DNA of 64,000 bases from Anaerolineales bacterium (GTDB lineage: Bacteria > Chloroflexota > Anaerolineae > Anaerolineales > Villigracilaceae). Positions 2,920 through 62,091 of the stretch are shown in pieces. Each line of letters opens with the position of its first letter. The first letter of the stretch is position 1. Below the pieces are notes generated by a model, which saw only the letters and a list, made by a program, of their open reading frames with translations, was not told the origin of the DNA and made no database searches. The DNA is taken from NCBI GenBank assembly GCA_042408355.1, contig JBHORD010000165.1:5501-69500 (forward strand), read 5' to 3'. The translations under genes were made by a program, and so were the position numbers.

Positions 2920-3018
2920 TTAGTTTACTGCCGTTTCGACGGTTTTACGCGCCCCGGAGCGCAACGGTGCCAGGCCTCCGGGTCCCTGTGGCGTGGGAAT
3001 GATTCCATCTTCAGTCAT
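2920..3018 (-). CDS. Candidate 32-codon leader ORF upstream of thrS (MTEDGIIPTPQGPGGLAPLRSGARKTVETAVN)
   Basis: ATG 3018..3016 sits 5 nt after GGAGG (3028..3024). Stop TAA at 2922..2920, 20 nt before the thrS start. No recognisable family. Confidence 0.2.
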   Translation of the reverse strand: MTEDGIIPTPQGPGGLAPLRSGARKTVETAVN

Positions 3019-3044
3019 AGCGACCTCCGTATAAACAACTCTTC

Positions 3045-3122
3045 CTACGCAGTAGCGCGAGTTCTATCTCGTATTTTCAGACGACATGAATGTCGCGCTG
3101 CGGGGAAACTGCGTAACATCAG
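3045..3122 (-). repeat. Copy A of the ~79-nt TGATGTTACGCAG... repeat (mini-ORF MLRSFPAARHSCRLKIRDRTRATA)
   Basis: Aligns without gaps to the copies at 21218.. and 61947.. (13 mismatches over 75 nt to each, hand count). Lies between the T-box terminator and thrS. Confidence 0.8.
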
Positions 3123-3305
3123 TAAATAAAAATTCTCGCCCGATTACGGGGCGAGAATTTACTTCACGCGGTTCCACCCGATTTGAATTAGTTCGATAGT
3201 TTCCCGGTTTTGCAGTTCGATAGTCCGCGCGGCTGTCAAACCATCCAACTGCCCAGCGAAGGAACTGCCGGACTAGTCCATCTCTTGAGCCGATAACGGA
3301 GCCGA
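3121..3305 (-). promoter_or_regulatory. T-box leader (tRNA-sensing riboswitch) with intrinsic terminator, upstream of thrS
   Basis: Minus strand reads AAATCGGGTGGAACCGCG (3184..3167), matching the T-box consensus AAUUGGGUGGUACCGCG. It is followed directly by the terminator AAATTCTCGCCC-loop-GGGCGAGAATTT plus a T-run (3160..3121). AGAGA bulge motif upstream; ACU-A candidate Thr specifiers. Confidence 0.8.
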
Positions 3306-3532
3306 CCGTTTTCCATACTAACTGATCGCTGCTTATTGAACACCGATCACTGTTCTGTTCAACGCTCGCGGGTGGTTTTCAGCGGTTGCTTCTGGAACAA
3401 GCTCTCAATCTTTGGCTTGCTTTCCCTGTCAGAAACAGCGGGTGTAAATGCCATCGAGCCGCCTACTCGTCCCGGTCATTGCGTTTCTTGGATTTGCGAC
3501 ATTATACGCGTTTCAAAGTCGGTCGGCAAGGT

Positions 3533-6486: not shown

Positions 6487-7005
6487 TTGACAATGCTTTA
6501 CCTCGCGCTCTTTCTTATTATCCTTGCCATCCTCTTTTTCTGGCAATCCAATCGCCAGCGGCGTCAGGCCGGCCTGCCCGGTGGACGTATCATTTACACG
6601 GACACGCGCACCTGGGGCGAGGTCGAGAAACCGTTGTTTTATTCCGAAATGGGATTGACAGGCAAGCCCGATTATCTCGTGGAGCAGAACGGAAAGATCA
6701 TTCCAGTCGAGGTCAAATCGGGGCGCACGCCCGAAGTCCCGTATGATTCGCACATCTTCCAGGTCGCGGCGTATTGCCTGTTGGTTGAAAAAACTTTCGG
6801 CAAGCGTCCGCCTTATGGAATCATCCATTATTCAAACCGCGATTTCGCCGTGGATTACACGCCCGAACTCGAATCGGCGCTGCTTGATCAATTGGCAGAG
6901 ATGAAGCGCGACGAATATCGTACACAGGTCGCGCGCTCGCACGAGGACGCGGCGCGCTGTCGGAGGTGCGGCTTTAGAAAAGTCTGTGATCAAAAACTGG
7001 TTTGA
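6487..7005 (+). CDS. Cas4/DUF83-like PD-(D/E)xK nuclease core with N-terminal TM helix
   Basis: TM helix MLYLALFLIILAILFFW, then GKPDYLV (D), PVEVKSG (ExK), QVAAYCLL (QxxxY) and C-terminal CRRCGFRKVC (Cx2Cx5C), the canonical Cas4 motif order. The start could be ATG 6493. Confidence 0.75.
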   Translation: MTMLYLALFLIILAILFFWQSNRQRRQAGLPGGRIIYTDTRTWGEVEKPLFYSEMGLTGKPDYLVEQNGKIIPVEVKSGRTPEVPYDSHIFQVAAYCLLVEKTFGKRPPYGIIHYSNRDFAVDYTPELESALLDQLAEMKRDEYRTQVARSHEDAARCRRCGFRKVCDQKLV

Positions 7006-14204: not shown

Positions 14205-14441
14205 GAGATTATTTTATCATGGGGGAGGCGAAAGGACTTCGGCCCCGCCAGGCGAAATACATTCAACCAAAACTTGTTTTCCTCAATTTCAAAATCCCTG
14301 TTTCAGAAAAGCTTCCGCGGCCTCTATGAATTCCCCGGCTCCTCCTGTCATTTCACGAACTTCATCAAGATAGGCTCACCTGCAAGACATCCTATTTTGA
14401 GGCAATTATTTTTTTCTAATGCGATTGCCCTGCGACAACAT

Positions 14442-19885: not shown

Positions 19886-19914
19886 TTGACGTTTCTCAAC
19901 GCGCGGCATACAAT
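19886..19914 (+). promoter_or_regulatory. Sigma-70 promoter TTGACG-17-TACAAT
   Basis: Exact 17-nt spacer. Drives the cobalamin riboswitch leader. Confidence 0.55.
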
Positions 19915-19920
19915 CCGCTC

Positions 19921-20166
19921 ACAATTGAATAAGATCGGAAAGCGGCGAAGCCGGTGTAATTCCGGCGCTGTCCCGCAACTGTGAATTAGCAATGAGCGAT
20001 TAGCGATTAAGCCCAACGGCTGACAGATAAAAGCTAATAACCAACAGCTAATAAGTCAGGTCGCCCGCCTCCGGTCGGTTCACCACACTCTCGTGGAAAG
20101 GAGGTGGAGGACGGCTGACATAGCGAGCCTCTATCTCCCCAGTCAACGACTGGGGATTTTGTTTTG
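19921..20166 (+). promoter_or_regulatory. Cobalamin (B12) riboswitch with terminator expression platform
   Basis: Core GCCGGTGTAATTCCGGCGCTGTCCCGCAACTGTGA and B12-box-like AAGTCAGGTCGCCCGCC. Terminator CCCCAGTC-AAC-GACTGGGG (20137..20155) plus TTTTGTTTT. Lies upstream of a BtuF-like gene. Confidence 0.8.
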
Positions 20167-20226: not shown

Positions 20227-21216
20227 ATGTTTCGCAAGATTTTAATTTTTGCTTTGTTGGCAGGATTAGTCTTCGGATGCGCGCCTGCGGTCACGCCTCA
20301 GGCCGCGCCGACGGCTGTTTTCACACAGCCGGCTCAAGTCCAGACGGAAGCGCCTGCCGCGACGGCCACATCATCTGCCATCACGCTGACAGACGGCCTC
20401 GGCCGCACCGTTACATTGTCTCATCCCGCACAGCGAATCGTTTCGCTGGCTCCGTCAAATACCGAAATTCTGTTTGCCATCGGCGCCGGCTCGCAGGTGG
20501 TCGGCCGCGACGATCTTTCGGATTATCCGGCGCAAGTAAAATCACTGCCAAGCGTCGGCGGCTCGATGGGCAATTACAGCACGGAAGCCATCGTTGCGCT
20601 CAAGCCGGATTTGGTCCTTGCCGCGGAAATCAATACGCCTGAATTGGTGAAGTCGCTTGAATCTTTGGGATTAACGGTTTATTACTTAAAGAATCCGGGC
20701 ACGCTGGAACAGATGTATGGCAATCTGCAAATCGTCGCGCAGTTGACGGGCCATGAATCGGACGCGTCCACGTTGATTGATTCGCTCAAGTCGCGCGTTG
20801 CGGCGGTGGACGCAAAACTCTCCGGCGTTACAACCAGGCCGATTGTGTTTTATGAAATTGACGCGACCGATCCGACAAAACCCTACACGTACGGTCCCGG
20901 CACATTTGGCGACGCGTTGATCGCCGAAGCGGGCGGCGAAAATTTTTCCGATGCCGCCGGCATCAAAGACGCATATCCTCAGGTGAGTCTGGAACAGATT
21001 GTGAAAACGAATCCGCAGATTATCATCCTCGGCGATTCAGCATACGGCGTGACGCCGGATTCCGTCAAAGCGCGCCCCGGCTGGAACACAATTGATGCAG
21101 TGAAGAACAACATGATCTTCCCGTTCGACGATAATCTCGTCAGCCGTCCCGGCCCGCGTCTCGTGGATGGACTGGAACAGCTGGCAAAGCTTTTGCATCC
21201 CGACTTGTTCAAATAA
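20227..21216 (+). CDS. ABC transporter substrate-binding lipoprotein, BtuF/FecB (cobalamin/siderophore) type
   Basis: Lipobox LVFGC. RIVSLAPSNTEILFAIGAG cluster-A SBP motif. B12 specificity is inferred from the riboswitch. Confidence 0.85.
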   Translation: MFRKILIFALLAGLVFGCAPAVTPQAAPTAVFTQPAQVQTEAPAATATSSAITLTDGLGRTVTLSHPAQRIVSLAPSNTEILFAIGAGSQVVGRDDLSDYPAQVKSLPSVGGSMGNYSTEAIVALKPDLVLAAEINTPELVKSLESLGLTVYYLKNPGTLEQMYGNLQIVAQLTGHESDASTLIDSLKSRVAAVDAKLSGVTTRPIVFYEIDATDPTKPYTYGPGTFGDALIAEAGGENFSDAAGIKDAYPQVSLEQIVKTNPQIIILGDSAYGVTPDSVKARPGWNTIDAVKNNMIFPFDDNLVSRPGPRLVDGLEQLAKLLHPDLFK

Positions 21217-21217
21217 C

Positions 21218-21303
21218 TGATGTTAAGCAGTTCCCCTGCAGCGCGACATTCACGCCGCCTGAAAATGCGAGAGAAATCTCGCCCTGCTGCGTACGGTGGG
21301 TGA
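21218..21303 (+). repeat. Copy D of the TGATGTT... repeat (mini-ORF MLSSSPAARHSRRLKMREKSRPAAYGG)
   Basis: Starts 1 nt after the btuF-like TAA. The ATG at 21220 is in frame, 3 nt after the stop. Aligns without gaps to copies A and B. Confidence 0.8.
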
Positions 21304-21328
21304 GCAAATAATTCACCTTACGCAGAAC

Positions 21329-21380
21329 GTCCCGAAGGTTTTCTTCTTCAATAATGTTCTTTTCAGAAAACCTTCGGGAC
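21329..21380 (+). other. Perfect 16-bp hairpin in the btuF-btuC spacer
   Basis: GTCCCGAAGGTTTTCT (21329..21344) and AGAAAACCTTCGGGAC (21365..21380) with a 20-nt loop. No T-run follows. Confidence 0.7.
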
Positions 21381-21443
21381 AAGACAAACATCTATAAATA
21401 ATCCAGGCGGGAGCGGAAGCAGCGCTCCGCCCCTGCACGTAAA

Positions 21444-52459: not shown

Positions 52460-52535
52460 CGGGGTGTAGCGCAGTTGGTAGCGCGCTTGCTTTGGGAGCA
52501 AGAGGTCCCGGGTTCAAATCCCGGCACCCCGACCA
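52460..52535 (+). tRNA. tRNA-Pro (anticodon UGG), CCA encoded
   Basis: CGGGGTGTAGCGCAGTTGGTAGCGCGCTTGCTTTGGGAGCAAGAGGTCCCGGGTTCAAATCCCGGCACCCCGACCA. Anticodon loop TTTGGGA. Confidence 0.95.
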
Positions 52536-52543
52536 AGGTCCAA

Positions 52544-52612
52544 CCACAGAGACACAGAGTTCACGAAGATTTAGAAAAGTCTAAGCGTTCTCTGTCTCTC
52601 TGTGGTTTTATT
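52544..52612 (+). terminator. Long hairpin terminator after tRNA-Pro
   Basis: CCACAGAGACACAGAG ... CTCTGTCTCTCTGTGG (one mismatch), followed by TTTTATT. Confidence 0.55.
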
Positions 52613-58981: not shown

Positions 58982-59075
58982 CCGATGTGACGCATTGTGC
59001 AGCAACATGAGGTTTATCTTGCATTTGCAGGCGGCATGTTGCATGGTTCCGCATTATTCCAACAATCCAGAAATG
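58982..59075 (-). repeat. Diverged copy C2 of the TGATGTT... repeat
   Basis: Minus strand AACATGCCGCCTGCAAATGCAAGATAAACCTCATG aligns to CATTCATGCCGCCTGAAAATACGAGATAAAGCTCATG of copy B. The homologous reading frame remains open. Confidence 0.55.
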
Positions 59076-59166
59076 GGCTTATGCGCCGCCACAGATCGTC
59101 CCCGAATGGGAGGCATGTCGCAGCCCATATCTGGAACATCCGCGTAAAGGCGAGATAAAATTCGCG

Positions 59167-59234
59167 CTACGCCATTGTCAGATTAATTTGTAAATTTGCA
59201 AAACGCCGCCCTGCGGGAAAACTGCGCAACATCA
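59167..59234 (-). repeat. Copy C1 of the TGATGTT... repeat (mini-ORF MLRSFPAGRRFANLQINLTMA)
   Basis: TGATGTTGCGCAGTTTTCCCGCAG starts on the glgC stop codon (UGAUG overlap). The 3' half is diverged. The ORF ends GCG TAG, as in copy A. Confidence 0.7.
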
Positions 59235-60476
59235 GCTGTTATTATCCGGCGTAATGTGCGTACCGGCGGGAATCTCCACGTCTTTGGGAAGAACAACGAT
59301 TCCATCGCGGACAAACCATTTATTGCGATCGAGGTCAGTGTTGCGCGGAAAGGGGTGGATGACGACGCCTTCGCCAATTCGCACATTTTTATCGAGGATG
59401 GCGCCTTGGATATCGCAATTCGCACCCACGCCAATCTCCTCGGAGTAATAATCCGAGCCCATCAAAATCGAATCCCGGATGCGCGTTCCTGCCGCGACTT
59501 GACTGCGGATACCGACCACCGAATGCGTGATCTCGGCTTTTTGGATACGGCAGCCTTCCGCCAAAAGAACATCGGTCAAGTGGCTGTCCACCACGACGCT
59601 TCCGGGCAGGAATCGTCCGTGAGTGTAGATCGGAAGTTTCGGGTCATAGAAATTGAACGGCGAGTCCGGCAGGGTTAATTCCAAATTGGTTTCATAGAAC
59701 GAACGGATCGTCCCAATATCCCGCCAGTAGCCGTCGAAATCAAAGCCGTAAACATTATGAGAGTGAATGGCCTCGGGAATGATCTCGCCGCCAAAATCAT
59801 CGTGGCGGCGGTGGTACGTCAGAAGCTCAACCAGCACCCTGGTCTTGAACATGTAAATTCCCATCGAACCGAGGAATGGACGCTTCTCGTCCTCGCGGCT
59901 GACGAATTTATCCTGCACCGATTTTTCTTTCGGTTTCTCGACAAAATCCGTGATGCGGCAGTTGGGTTCGCGCTTTAAGATTCCGAAACGCGGCGCTTCT
60001 TCGCGCGGGACGGGTTGAACGGCAATCGTTATATCGGCGTCCTGCCGCCAGTGGAACTCCGCCATCTTTTCGTAATCCATGCGATACAAATGATCGCCGG
60101 CAAGGATCAAAACATATTCGGCGCCGGTTGCCTGAATCTCGAATAATTGTTTACGCACCGCGTCCGCCGTGCCTTGATACCAGTCTGCAGATTCCGGCGT
60201 TTGCTCGGCGGCCCAGATCTGCACCCAGCCGGTGTGAAACGCGTCGAAGCGGTAAGCCTGCGAGATGTGACGATGCAGGGAGACGGAATTGAATTGCGTC
60301 AGGACCGCGATGCGATAAATCCCCGAGTTGATGCAATTGCTGATGGGAATATCAATCAGGCGGTATTTTCCCGCAATGGGCACCGCCGGTTTCGAACGCA
60401 TCCACGTCAGTGGATACAGGCGCGCACCGCGCCCGCCCCCCATGATCACTGCTAAAATCTCGTTCATTGTCGGCAT
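59232..60476 (-). CDS. glgC: Glucose-1-phosphate adenylyltransferase
   Basis: GGGRGARLYPLT and KPAVPIAGKYRLIDIPISN motifs, plus a C-terminal left-handed beta-helix. GGAGG SD. Confidence 0.95.
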   Translation of the reverse strand: MPTMNEILAVIMGGGRGARLYPLTWMRSKPAVPIAGKYRLIDIPISNCINSGIYRIAVLTQFNSVSLHRHISQAYRFDAFHTGWVQIWAAEQTPESADWYQGTADAVRKQLFEIQATGAEYVLILAGDHLYRMDYEKMAEFHWRQDADITIAVQPVPREEAPRFGILKREPNCRITDFVEKPKEKSVQDKFVSREDEKRPFLGSMGIYMFKTRVLVELLTYHRRHDDFGGEIIPEAIHSHNVYGFDFDGYWRDIGTIRSFYETNLELTLPDSPFNFYDPKLPIYTHGRFLPGSVVVDSHLTDVLLAEGCRIQKAEITHSVVGIRSQVAAGTRIRDSILMGSDYYSEEIGVGANCDIQGAILDKNVRIGEGVVIHPFPRNTDLDRNKWFVRDGIVVLPKDVEIPAGTHITPDNNS

Positions 60477-60890: not shown

Positions 60891-61949
60891 ATGAAACTTG
60901 GAATCATCGGATTACCCCAATCAGGAAAAACAACCATCTTCAATGCGCTGACGCGCGGCAATACGCCGACGACCGCCAGCGCGGGACGCATCGAAGTTCA
61001 TACGGCCGTGGTGGATGTCCCCGACCCGCGCGTGGACAGGCTCTCGGCCATGTTCAAACCGAGGAAAACGATCTACGCCAAGGTGACTTATGCAGATATC
61101 GCGGGACTCGAAGGCGGCGCGGCCAAAAGCGGAATCTCCGGCCAACTGCTGAATCAACTCGCGCAAATGGACGGTTTCATCCTCGTCGTCCGCGCCTTTG
61201 ACGACGCGAACGTGCCGCATCCATCCGGAAGCGTGGACCCCCAACGCGATGTCGAAGCGATGCTAAGCGAACTCCTGCTCAACGATTTGATTGCGGTCGA
61301 ACGCAAGCTGGAGCGCCTCAACGAGGAGCGCCGAAAAGGCGGCACGGACAAAACCATCAATGCCCGCCAGACCGAATTGTTCGAGCGGCTGAACAAAGCG
61401 CTTTCAGAAAACAAGCCCCTGCGCGTGATGGAGTTCAACGCGGAGGAACAAAAAGAACTGGCCTCCTATGGTTTGTTGACTCGCAAACCGATTCTCACGG
61501 TATTCAATCTCGGCGAAGGACAGAAAACGCCTTCCATCGAACTGGATCATCCCTGCGTGGCTTTGATGGGAAAACTCGAAATGGAGATCGCACAGCTCAA
61601 TCCGGAAGACGCGGCCGTTTTTATGCAGGAATACGGCATCGAAGAACTCGGTTTGAGCAAAATGATCAGGCTTTCGTATGATTTATTAAAGTTGCAATCT
61701 TTCTTCACCGTCGGCGAAGATGAAGTCCGCGCCTGGACGACGCGCCGCGGCGCAACCGCAGTCGAGGCGGCGGGCGAAATTCATACCGATTTACAGCGCG
61801 GCTTTGTGCGCGCCGAAGTCGTCTCTTATGAGGATTTGATTTCGCTGGGCGGAATGAACGAAGCCAAAGTCAAAGGCAAGTTGCGGCTGGAAGGAAAAGA
61901 ATACCTCGTCAAAGACGGGGATATTATGCACATCCGCTTTAACCTCTGA
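60891..61949 (+). CDS. ychF: Ribosome-binding ATPase YchF
   Basis: GLPQSGKTT P-loop and C-terminal TGS-like end ...GDIMHIRFNL, 352 aa. Confidence 0.95.
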   Translation: MKLGIIGLPQSGKTTIFNALTRGNTPTTASAGRIEVHTAVVDVPDPRVDRLSAMFKPRKTIYAKVTYADIAGLEGGAAKSGISGQLLNQLAQMDGFILVVRAFDDANVPHPSGSVDPQRDVEAMLSELLLNDLIAVERKLERLNEERRKGGTDKTINARQTELFERLNKALSENKPLRVMEFNAEEQKELASYGLLTRKPILTVFNLGEGQKTPSIELDHPCVALMGKLEMEIAQLNPEDAAVFMQEYGIEELGLSKMIRLSYDLLKLQSFFTVGEDEVRAWTTRRGATAVEAAGEIHTDLQRGFVRAEVVSYEDLISLGGMNEAKVKGKLRLEGKEYLVKDGDIMHIRFNL

Positions 61950-62025
61950 TGTTACGCAGTTCCCTCGCAGGACAACATTCATGCCGCCTGAAAATACGAG
62001 ATAAAGCTCATGCTACCGCGTAAGG
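61947..62025 (+). repeat. Copy B of the TGATGTT... repeat (mini-ORF MLRSSLAGQHSCRLKIRDKAHATA)
   Basis: Begins on the ychF TGA stop (UGAUG overlap). ATG at 61949, TAA at 62021..62023. Aligns without gaps to copies A and D. Confidence 0.8.
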
Positions 62026-62091
62026 TGAGTTAACGTAGGAGCATGCCTGACATGGAAAACGCAATCCCTCAAATCTGACCACGGAGAGATT

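Follow-up and report, generated by a model that had tools for sequence, protein, structure and literature searches.

Small repeats fused to stop codons in an Anaerolineales genome are very probably miniature transposons with IS701-type ends

A 64,000-nucleotide stretch of an Anaerolineales genome (contig JBHORD010000165.1; the whole stretch is called the window below) contains a short repeat that begins exactly at the end of the ychF, glgC and BtuF-like genes. An earlier note, made from the sequence alone, proposed that each copy carries a conserved basic mini-open reading frame (mini-ORF, "MLRS...") translated by termination-reinitiation, and kept a mobile repeat or a structured RNA as alternatives. 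What is this element, and why does it sit on stop codons? The analysis described here makes it very probable that it is a non-coding MITE (a miniature transposable element bounded by inverted repeats) with ends of the IS701 family (ISAba11 group) and the target TTANTAA. This verdict is based on the terminal repeats, the target duplication, the small size and multiple copies, the lack of a conserved ORF, the ends shared with autonomous insertion sequences (IS), and the comparison of filled and empty sites. The element is a new family member in Anaerolineales of a well-known kind.

Terminal repeats, target duplications and autonomous relatives

The repeat itself was readily recovered. In a repeat search, 61946-62031 was 80% identical to 21217-21301 and, as an inverted repeat, 83% identical to 3037-3122; the pair 21216-21293 and 3046-3123 reached 85%. 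The three clean copies are co-linear and 80-85% identical pairwise; a 26-nt core pattern had three matches in the window, only at these copies, against 0.00 expected by chance. In total the window holds three clean 84-nt copies, a fourth, disrupted copy and one element of a second MITE subfamily (Table 1). The right end of copy 2 carries a 4-nt GGTG duplication. Two loci reported previously, a glgC copy (59167-59234) and a diverged copy (58982-59075), belong together as opposite ends of a single, interrupted element, since the covariance model built from the clean copies aligns 58984-59238 (-) from end to end (model positions 1-92). A short relative proposed after the GNAT gene (14406-14441) gave no covariance-model match even without filters, no terminal-repeat match at up to 2 mismatches and no flanking duplication; it is at best a badly decayed relative. 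The window copies, being only 80-85% alike, are probably old and immobile.

Table 1. Copies of the element and their parts in the 64-kb window
Feature	Position	Strand	Remarks
MITE copy 1, directly after ychF	61946-62029	+	covariance model 84.4 bits
Copy 1, left terminal repeat	61946-61959	+	CTGATGTTACGCAG
Copy 1, right terminal repeat	62016-62029	+	CCGCGTAAGGTGAG
Copy 1, core: two inverted hairpins resembling repetitive extragenic palindromes (REP)	about 61967-61988, 61996-62016		spacer CTGAAAAT at 61988-61995
Copy 1, own TGA = ychF stop codon	61947-61949	+	
Copy 1, target-site duplication, left	61939-61945		TTAACCT
Copy 1, target-site duplication, right	62030-62036		TTAACGT, 6/7 match to left
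MITE copy 2, after BtuF-like gene	21217-21304	+	covariance model 85 bits
Copy 2, target-site duplications	21210-21216 and 21305-21311		perfect 7-bp CAAATAA; left one includes the TAA stop of the gene
MITE copy 3, thrS leader, between T-box terminator and thrS start codon (2899)	3039-3122	-	97.1 bits
Copy 3, target-site duplications	3123-3129; 3032-3038		TTATTTA; TTGTTTA; 6/7 match
MITE copy 4, disrupted, at glgC	58982-59235	-	covariance model 35.5 bits, model positions 1-92
Copy 4, left terminal repeat and 5' part	59235 to about 59200	-	
Copy 4, mosaic insert, about 160 nt			GTAG-tagged hairpin at 59150-59170; ATCGTCCCCGAATGGG module in reverse
Copy 4, 3' half	about 59038-58999	-	decayed right end ATGCGTCACATCGG, ends at 58982
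Copy 4, TGA = present glgC stop codon	59234-59232	-	
Second MITE subfamily, tandem behind copy 2	21312-21394	+	same terminal-repeat type TTCACCTTACGCAG, different core

When the species genomes of GTDB were searched for a 23-nt pattern from the core, 16 loci were found in five metagenome-assembled genomes (MAGs) of Anaerolineales/Chloroflexota. (Labels L### denote sampled loci of genomes and metagenomes; L001-L016 are these 16 Anaerolineales loci.) Copies of the element were found in these 5 GTDB genomes and in many metagenomes, with a size of 84-139 nt. The 5' half of the consensus reads C-TGATG-TTACGCAG-TTTCTTC-GTAG-CGCGACA-TTCA-TGTCGC-CTGAAAAT and the 3' half, after CTGAAAAT, GCGAGA-TAAA-TCTCGCG-CTAC-TGCGTAA-GGTGAG, although many copies start with CTCACC, CTGACG or CTGACA, not CTGATG. 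A blastn search of the plasmid collection with the 84-nt consensus gave no match.

The element is bounded by imperfect terminal inverted repeats of 14 nt, C-T[G/C]A[T/C][G/C]-TTACGCAG, and all clean copies carry CTGATGTTACGCAG together with the reverse complement CTGCGTAA-GGTGAG/CATGAG. Well-preserved copies are all flanked by a 7-bp direct duplication of the target, a feature absent from the earlier note. Outside the window, perfect duplications were TTACTAA, TTGGTAA, TTATACA, TTTGTAA and GTAATCA. In a strict comparison, the flanking 7-mers matched at 6 or more of 7 positions in 10 of 18 copies, compared to 1.6% of mismatched left/right pairs; two more of the 18 reached this level after their right-end anchors were corrected by eye.

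Much the same was seen in a larger set. A metagenome scan with the left end alone (ACTGATGTTACGCAGTT) gave at least 120 loci, and the cores found between these ends are many, unrelated to one another and 56 to about 460 nt long. Among the matches listed, 58 non-redundant small elements bounded by these terminal repeats were collected from genomes and metagenomes; within this set perfect 7/7 duplications were present in 37 and matches of at least 6/7 in 44. The target logo, T-T-A-N-T-A-A, is 89% A+T, against 54% G+C for the window; the strongly preferred target is an AT-rich palindrome. Targets with a first base other than T or a last base other than A (GTCTTAA, ATGGTAA, CAAATAA, GTAATCA) are duplicated in full, and because these atypical edge bases are also duplicated, 7 bp is the true duplication length in the elements studied.

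Tandem insertions re-use the duplicated target. The second-subfamily element behind copy 2, with a core formed by a long hairpin (CGTCCCGAAGGTTTTC...GAAAACCTTCGGGAC) and a decayed right end, is followed by TAAATAA (21395-21401), where the target is present for the third time. Metagenome contig L045 has an identical tandem arrangement of both subfamilies between three copies of TTACTCA, with the second-subfamily element at about 6792-6882, and the second-subfamily element stands alone at L016 6970-7061.

Several loci carry elements of 1.1-1.2 kb with perfect, identical ends, 7-bp duplications and a single ORF of about 355 aa. With the NCBIfam model NF049921, "IS701 family transposase", this protein reaches 356 bits (cut-off 250), and it also matches Pfam DDE_5 (51-60 bits against 27); a cyanobacterial homologue is annotated as "group ISAba11 transposase". 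Plasmid pPNAP01 of Polaromonas naphthalenivorans (NC_008757, 326434-327535) contains a 1,102-bp IS, CTGATGTTACGCAG...CTGCGTAACATCAG, with the duplication TATTTAA, and an IS with the same ends and the duplication TTATTTA is present in an Acinetobacter schindleri plasmid. Within Chloroflexota, a Caldilineaceae MAG (GCA_009837805.1) has a 1,138-bp IS, CTGATGTTACGCAG...CTGCGTAACATGAG, with the duplication TCATTAA. Its transposase was 74% identical to the query in a protein search started from one metagenomic copy, and its right end, CATGAG, matches that of the Anaerolineales copies of form B (described below). The outer 14 nt of the terminal repeats are identical in the window element and the ISAba11-group elements (CTGATGTTACGCAG / CTGCGTAACAT[C/G]AG), and the 7-bp AT-rich duplications and the TTANTAA logo are shared as well. 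In contrast to these IS, the window element is 84 bp long, has no transposase gene and nothing internal in common with them, and its right tip is usually GGTGAG where theirs is CATCAG. The predicted mobilising enzyme is an IS701 family (ISAba11 group) DDE transposase acting in trans.

Some observations weigh against this identification. The window copies are diverged, two having 6/7 duplications and one 4/7 by eye. ISAba11 itself has been reported with 5-bp direct repeats (bioRxiv 10.1101/2020.10.08.331108), not 7. No such transposase gene was detected by tblastn in the 64-kb window or in loci L001-L016; any autonomous partner that this genome may have is thus putative, and the nearest one found within the phylum is that of the Caldilineaceae MAG. 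The four window copies share one direction relative to transcription, which is suggestive but far from significant, and a modest excess of covariation in the hairpins would allow for some secondary role at the level of the host.

Further observations concern the ends. Two end-forms exist: form A, CTGATG...GGTGAG (window copies, L004, L012, L011), and form B, CTCACC...CATGAG (L010, L013, L016, L005, L001). The outer 6 nt are swapped and the core is unchanged, as if the segment bounded by TTACGCAG/CTGCGTAA had inverted. The same 14-nt ends also delimit a very abundant MITE family of 260-450 nt in environmental metagenomes, which starts with CTGATGTTACGCAGTTAGTCGAATTTCGACCGCTTTAACATTAAGGAGTCGCTAGCGCGACAC... 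and finishes with ...GTGCGTAACATCAG (L017, L035, L046, L050, L056, L076, L079, L081, L085, L088, L091, L101, L110, L123, L129, L131, L136 and others). Finally, at L062 (899 onward) and L089 (on the reverse-complement strand, about 900 nt from the start of that strand) the left terminal repeat is followed directly by a reverse-transcriptase-like ORF (...KKTAGIDGQRA...), which may belong to a group II intron or retroelement lying next to, or inserted into, the element end. Contigs with an IS701-type transposase (protein hits P0121-P0240) mostly measure no more than 1.1-1.5 kb, which is roughly the size of the IS itself, as is typical of a multi-copy element that breaks metagenome assemblies.

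Empty sites and the fusion to stop codons

The geometry described at the three genes is correct: the TGA of ychF and that of glgC overlap the ATG of the element by 1 nt, and the BtuF-like gene ends with TAA-CTG-ATG. The origin of this arrangement can be followed by comparison with the empty sites of close relatives. The ychF site is empty in three relatives (L141, L143 and L145) in which YchF is 91-93% identical to that of the window. There the gene ends in ...CG[TA] TTT AAC GTA, a TAG or TAA stop and then TGA..., i.e. TTTAACGTATAG/TAA, with no element. The window has ...CGC TTT AAC CT, the element (C TGA TG ... GGTGAG), and then TTAACGT AGGAGC. The element thus entered the heptamer TTAACGT, 3 nt ahead of the ancestral stop; its first base completed a GTC codon for Val, which today reads CTC (Leu), and its TGA became the stop. 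Since the C-terminus is RFN[I/V/L] in all 120 YchF homologues among the matches listed, the length of YchF was unchanged by the insertion.

The glgC site is empty in relative L146, which reads GGA TAG, TTAACTG, ACCTGTAATTCAA. In the window it reads GAT AAT AAC AG, the element (C TGA TG ... 254 nt ... CATCGG), TTAATAC and ACCTGTAATTCAA. In this case the element landed just after the old stop. Comparison of window 59232-59250 with L146 2880-2900 showed that one base was lost just before the end of the gene; the ancestral TAG is therefore bypassed and three extra codons (DNNS) lead to the TGA of the MITE. At the BtuF-like gene the original TAA stop lies inside the duplicated target.

The preferred target and the element tip account for the fusion. 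TTANTAA presents TAA toward the element from both sides, and C-TGA-TG is the left tip met most often; therefore two of the three incoming frames are closed at the element edge. An insertion farther inside a gene would kill or harm the cell and be removed by selection, and in a genome of 54% G+C the TAA-bearing AT-rich heptamers would be concentrated at gene ends and in leaders. Given such selection, the surviving insertions would accumulate at stop codons and leaders.

Consistent co-orientation with the upstream gene, another feature noted originally, holds for the window copies and breaks down in other genomes. In the 58-element set, only 11 elements directly adjoin the stop of an ORF of at least 80 codons, the left end doing so in 5 cases and the right end in 7. 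At the Anaerolineales loci, genes were seen to run into the one end or the other, and in other genomes most copies have no gene adjoining them. No orientation rule was found beyond the four window copies.

Core hairpins, RNA and the mini-ORF

The core of the element consists of two inverted hairpins around CTGAAAAT, each preceded in the consensus by GTAG: GTAGCGCGACATTCATGTCGC on one strand and GTAGCGCGAGATTTATCTCGC on the other. The window copies carry GCAG as their tag in place of GTAG. Some copies contain insertions of 19 nt (CATCGTCCCCGAATGGGGG) or of 19-23 nt in the hairpin loops, with lengthened stems. Stand-alone GTAG/GTAC-tagged REP-like hairpins or dimers lacking MITE ends were observed in the same genomes (L007 2857-2925 and 3348-3410; L016 3516-3565; L002 2525-2555; L011 1848-1870; L013 6175-6205; window 59150-59170), which indicates that these Anaerolineales genomes have a separate family of REP-like repeats. 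The 19-nt module, itself a small CCCC/GGGG hairpin, recurs in the loops of different REP-like hairpins, at the same position, after GCGA[C/G]A, and in many copies (L002, L005, L006, L007, L009, L051, L118); it is also found reversed at about 59100-59135 of the window. The core was probably taken up as cargo from this separate REP-like family into a DDE-MITE shell.

In a transcript shared with the upstream gene, the core would fold into a three-way structure of hairpins at the 3' end of the mRNA. It could accordingly be proposed that the element is an exapted MITE, kept by the host as a structured RNA in 3' untranslated regions (UTRs) and leaders, where a three-way junction stabilises or processes the upstream mRNA. 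There are precedents: REP, ERIC and Correia elements are reported to stabilise or process upstream mRNA, a role as mRNA 3'-end hairpins is reported for other MITEs and REPs (PMC2229807), and an action of MITE RNA hairpins on neighbouring mRNAs is documented in other families (PMC2229807, PMC3733652). The window copies all lie beside genes in the transcribed orientation; in other genomes the orientation relative to genes is mixed. In an alignment of 33 copies, 88% of cells of the proposed structure were standard pairs and 7 pairs had compensatory double changes, against 2.8 in shuffles, a control that is lenient for related sequences. Insertions in L011, L001 and L012 lengthen the hairpins and do not destroy them. 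However, covariation analysed on 16 and then on 33 copies was weak to modest and cannot separate constraints on RNA from those on DNA hairpins, palindromes being equally expected from recognition by a transposase or a REP system at the DNA level. Single-sequence folds of the window copies were unexceptional (sense z-scores -0.8, -0.7 and -3.5), with the antisense strand folding about equally well, and the element is not an intrinsic terminator because it has no U-tract. As supposed at the outset, it belongs to no known RNA family: Rfam gave nothing on the element at the gathering threshold or at E-values up to 10. A hammerhead-like reading of CUGAUG...GAAA was dropped on account of the variable tip (CTCACC in many copies) and the lack of an Rfam match. 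Of the proposed structured 3'-UTR RNA there survives the modest covariation, and we consider host selection for such an RNA unlikely as the explanation of the element; a secondary role of the MITE as an mRNA 3'-end hairpin is possible.

A related proposal combines the two parts. The element would be a chimera in which a REP doublet, the substrate of a REP-associated tyrosine transposase (RAYT), sits in the DDE-MITE shell and could spread by two transposition systems, some copies being kept for stabilisation or processing of transcripts. We regard this as doubtful. If it were true, the shell, with its TTANTAA target and its own TGA, would deliver a cassette of stop codon and mRNA 3'-end hairpin to gene ends in Anaerolineales. 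A RAYT gene flanked by the GCGACATTCATGTCGC hairpin, if there is one, would explain the core.

It is very unlikely that the whole element is a REPIN, a REP doublet moved not by a DDE enzyme but by a RAYT, which is a tyrosine transposase of IS200/IS605 type. The inverted GTAG-tagged hairpin doublet of the consensus would suit such a unit, as would the tagged hairpins and dimers without terminal repeats in the same genomes. GTAG-tagged REP dimers have been described nested in longer palindromes; like the core, they are inverted tagged short palindromes with a short conserved spacer and lie mostly downstream of genes (PMC3733652). The mobile unit, however, is bounded here by DDE-type terminal repeats and 7-bp duplications, which RAYT/IS200-type transposition does not produce, and the same ends enclose many cores without REP. 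The window tag is GCAG instead of GTAG, and no RAYT gene was seen, although no genome-wide RAYT search was made. Mobility of the whole element by an IS200/IS605-type or REPIN mechanism was rejected in view of the 7-bp duplications and the DDE-type insertion sequences.

The remaining proposal is the original one, a translationally coupled mini-gene in which termination at UGA is followed by re-initiation at the overlapping AUG (UGAUG), giving a functional basic peptide of about 24 aa. The geometry of UGAUG coupling of small ORFs is indeed seen in two window copies, those at ychF and glgC, with TAA-CTG-ATG at the BtuF-like gene. The four peptide strings had been read correctly, and the frame is open for 21-27 codons in each of the four copies of the window, while many other copies have it open for 24 codons. 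To judge the start codon we used 15 genome copies sampled by a core pattern that excludes the tip and the ATG. The "start" codon was ATG in 4 of these, GTG in 1, ATT/ATC in 2 and ACC/ACG/ACA in 8; the ATG is therefore absent from 11 of 15. Copy lengths of 71, 90, 92, 93, 111, 113, 115, 134 and 139 nt reveal indels whose size is no multiple of three. The frame is shifted by small indels and by insertions of 19, 23 and 42 nt; the 19-nt insertion changes the conceptual peptide wholly, from ...ARHSCRLKMRDKSRATA to ...ARHIVPEWGFMSPENAR. The mostly non-synonymous differences between two of the copies, which had already been remarked upon, agree with this. The ATG itself is part of the terminal repeat recognised by the transposase and is present on the 1.1-kb insertion sequences too. 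The thrS copy follows the T-box terminator in the leader, not an ORF, and the annotation of the source contig has no gene called at the element.

Start codon, frame and peptide are thus not conserved, the position after an ORF is not constant, and translational coupling can practically be dismissed: the geometry stems from the transposon tip, and the "MLRS..." frame of 24 codons arises incidentally from the ATG in that tip and from the sequence conservation among copies. An outcome named in advance as the mark of a plain repeat was found in part, namely frame-breaking indels and no orientation rule in other genomes, as for an ordinary MITE. The fallback reading as a REP/MITE-like repeat has thereby proved right, with terminal repeats of IS701 type and a 7-bp duplication.

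Related elements, neighbouring features and significance

Classical MITEs (Correia/NEMIS, ERIC/IRU, RUP, YPAL, Nezha) resemble the element in being small and non-coding, with terminal repeats and a target duplication, in lying beside genes and being co-transcribed, and in folding into stem-loops. In some cases open frames that arose in them by chance are joined to an adjacent ORF, as here (PMC2229807, PMC3184786). Their sequences are unrelated, however; the target here is a 7-bp TTANTAA and not TA, and the host phylum is Chloroflexota (Anaerolineales). Nezha, a cyanobacterial MITE with a Polaromonas link, was considered and rejected as the identity of the element since it has a 10-bp direct repeat (PMC6042816). 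In the literature we found no description of MITEs in Anaerolinea, Anaerolineales or Chloroflexi, or of ISAba11-derived MITEs.

The flanking genes were identified as those for YchF, GlgC, a BtuF-like binding protein, BtuC, ThrS and an M3 oligoendopeptidase, in agreement with the initial assignments. The T-box leader at 3144-3488 (-) scored 66 bits, below the Rfam gathering score of 93. Between MITE copy 3 and the thrS start there is a 32-codon ORF (2920-3018, -; MTEDGIIPTPQGPGGLAPLRSGARKTVETAVN) with a GGAGG Shine-Dalgarno sequence, in another frame than thrS; it may be due to chance or be a leader peptide. The tandem MITEs occupy the first intergenic gap of the btuF-like/btuC operon, upstream of which there is a cobalamin riboswitch (19887-20086, +; 36.4 bits in Rfam, above the gathering score). 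A hairpin motif AACCACAGAGACACAGAG...CTCTGTGTC...GTGGTT is present at 52542-52607, directly after a tRNA (52460-52532); it recurs inside a MITE insertion (L015, about 6880-6950) and in the MITE cores of L027 and L040.

The finding is mainly one of annotation and interpretation, and it removes a false candidate for a small protein made by reinitiation. At ychF and glgC, both conserved housekeeping genes, the present stop codon comes from the MITE, with the protein unchanged in the first case and barely changed in the second. Such elements are useful as markers, cause assembly breaks and call for caution in screens for small ORFs and non-coding RNAs. This is apparently the first documented MITE family of IS701/ISAba11 type in Anaerolineales, and in environmental metagenomes a very large, diverse collection of MITEs terminates in the same 14 nt.

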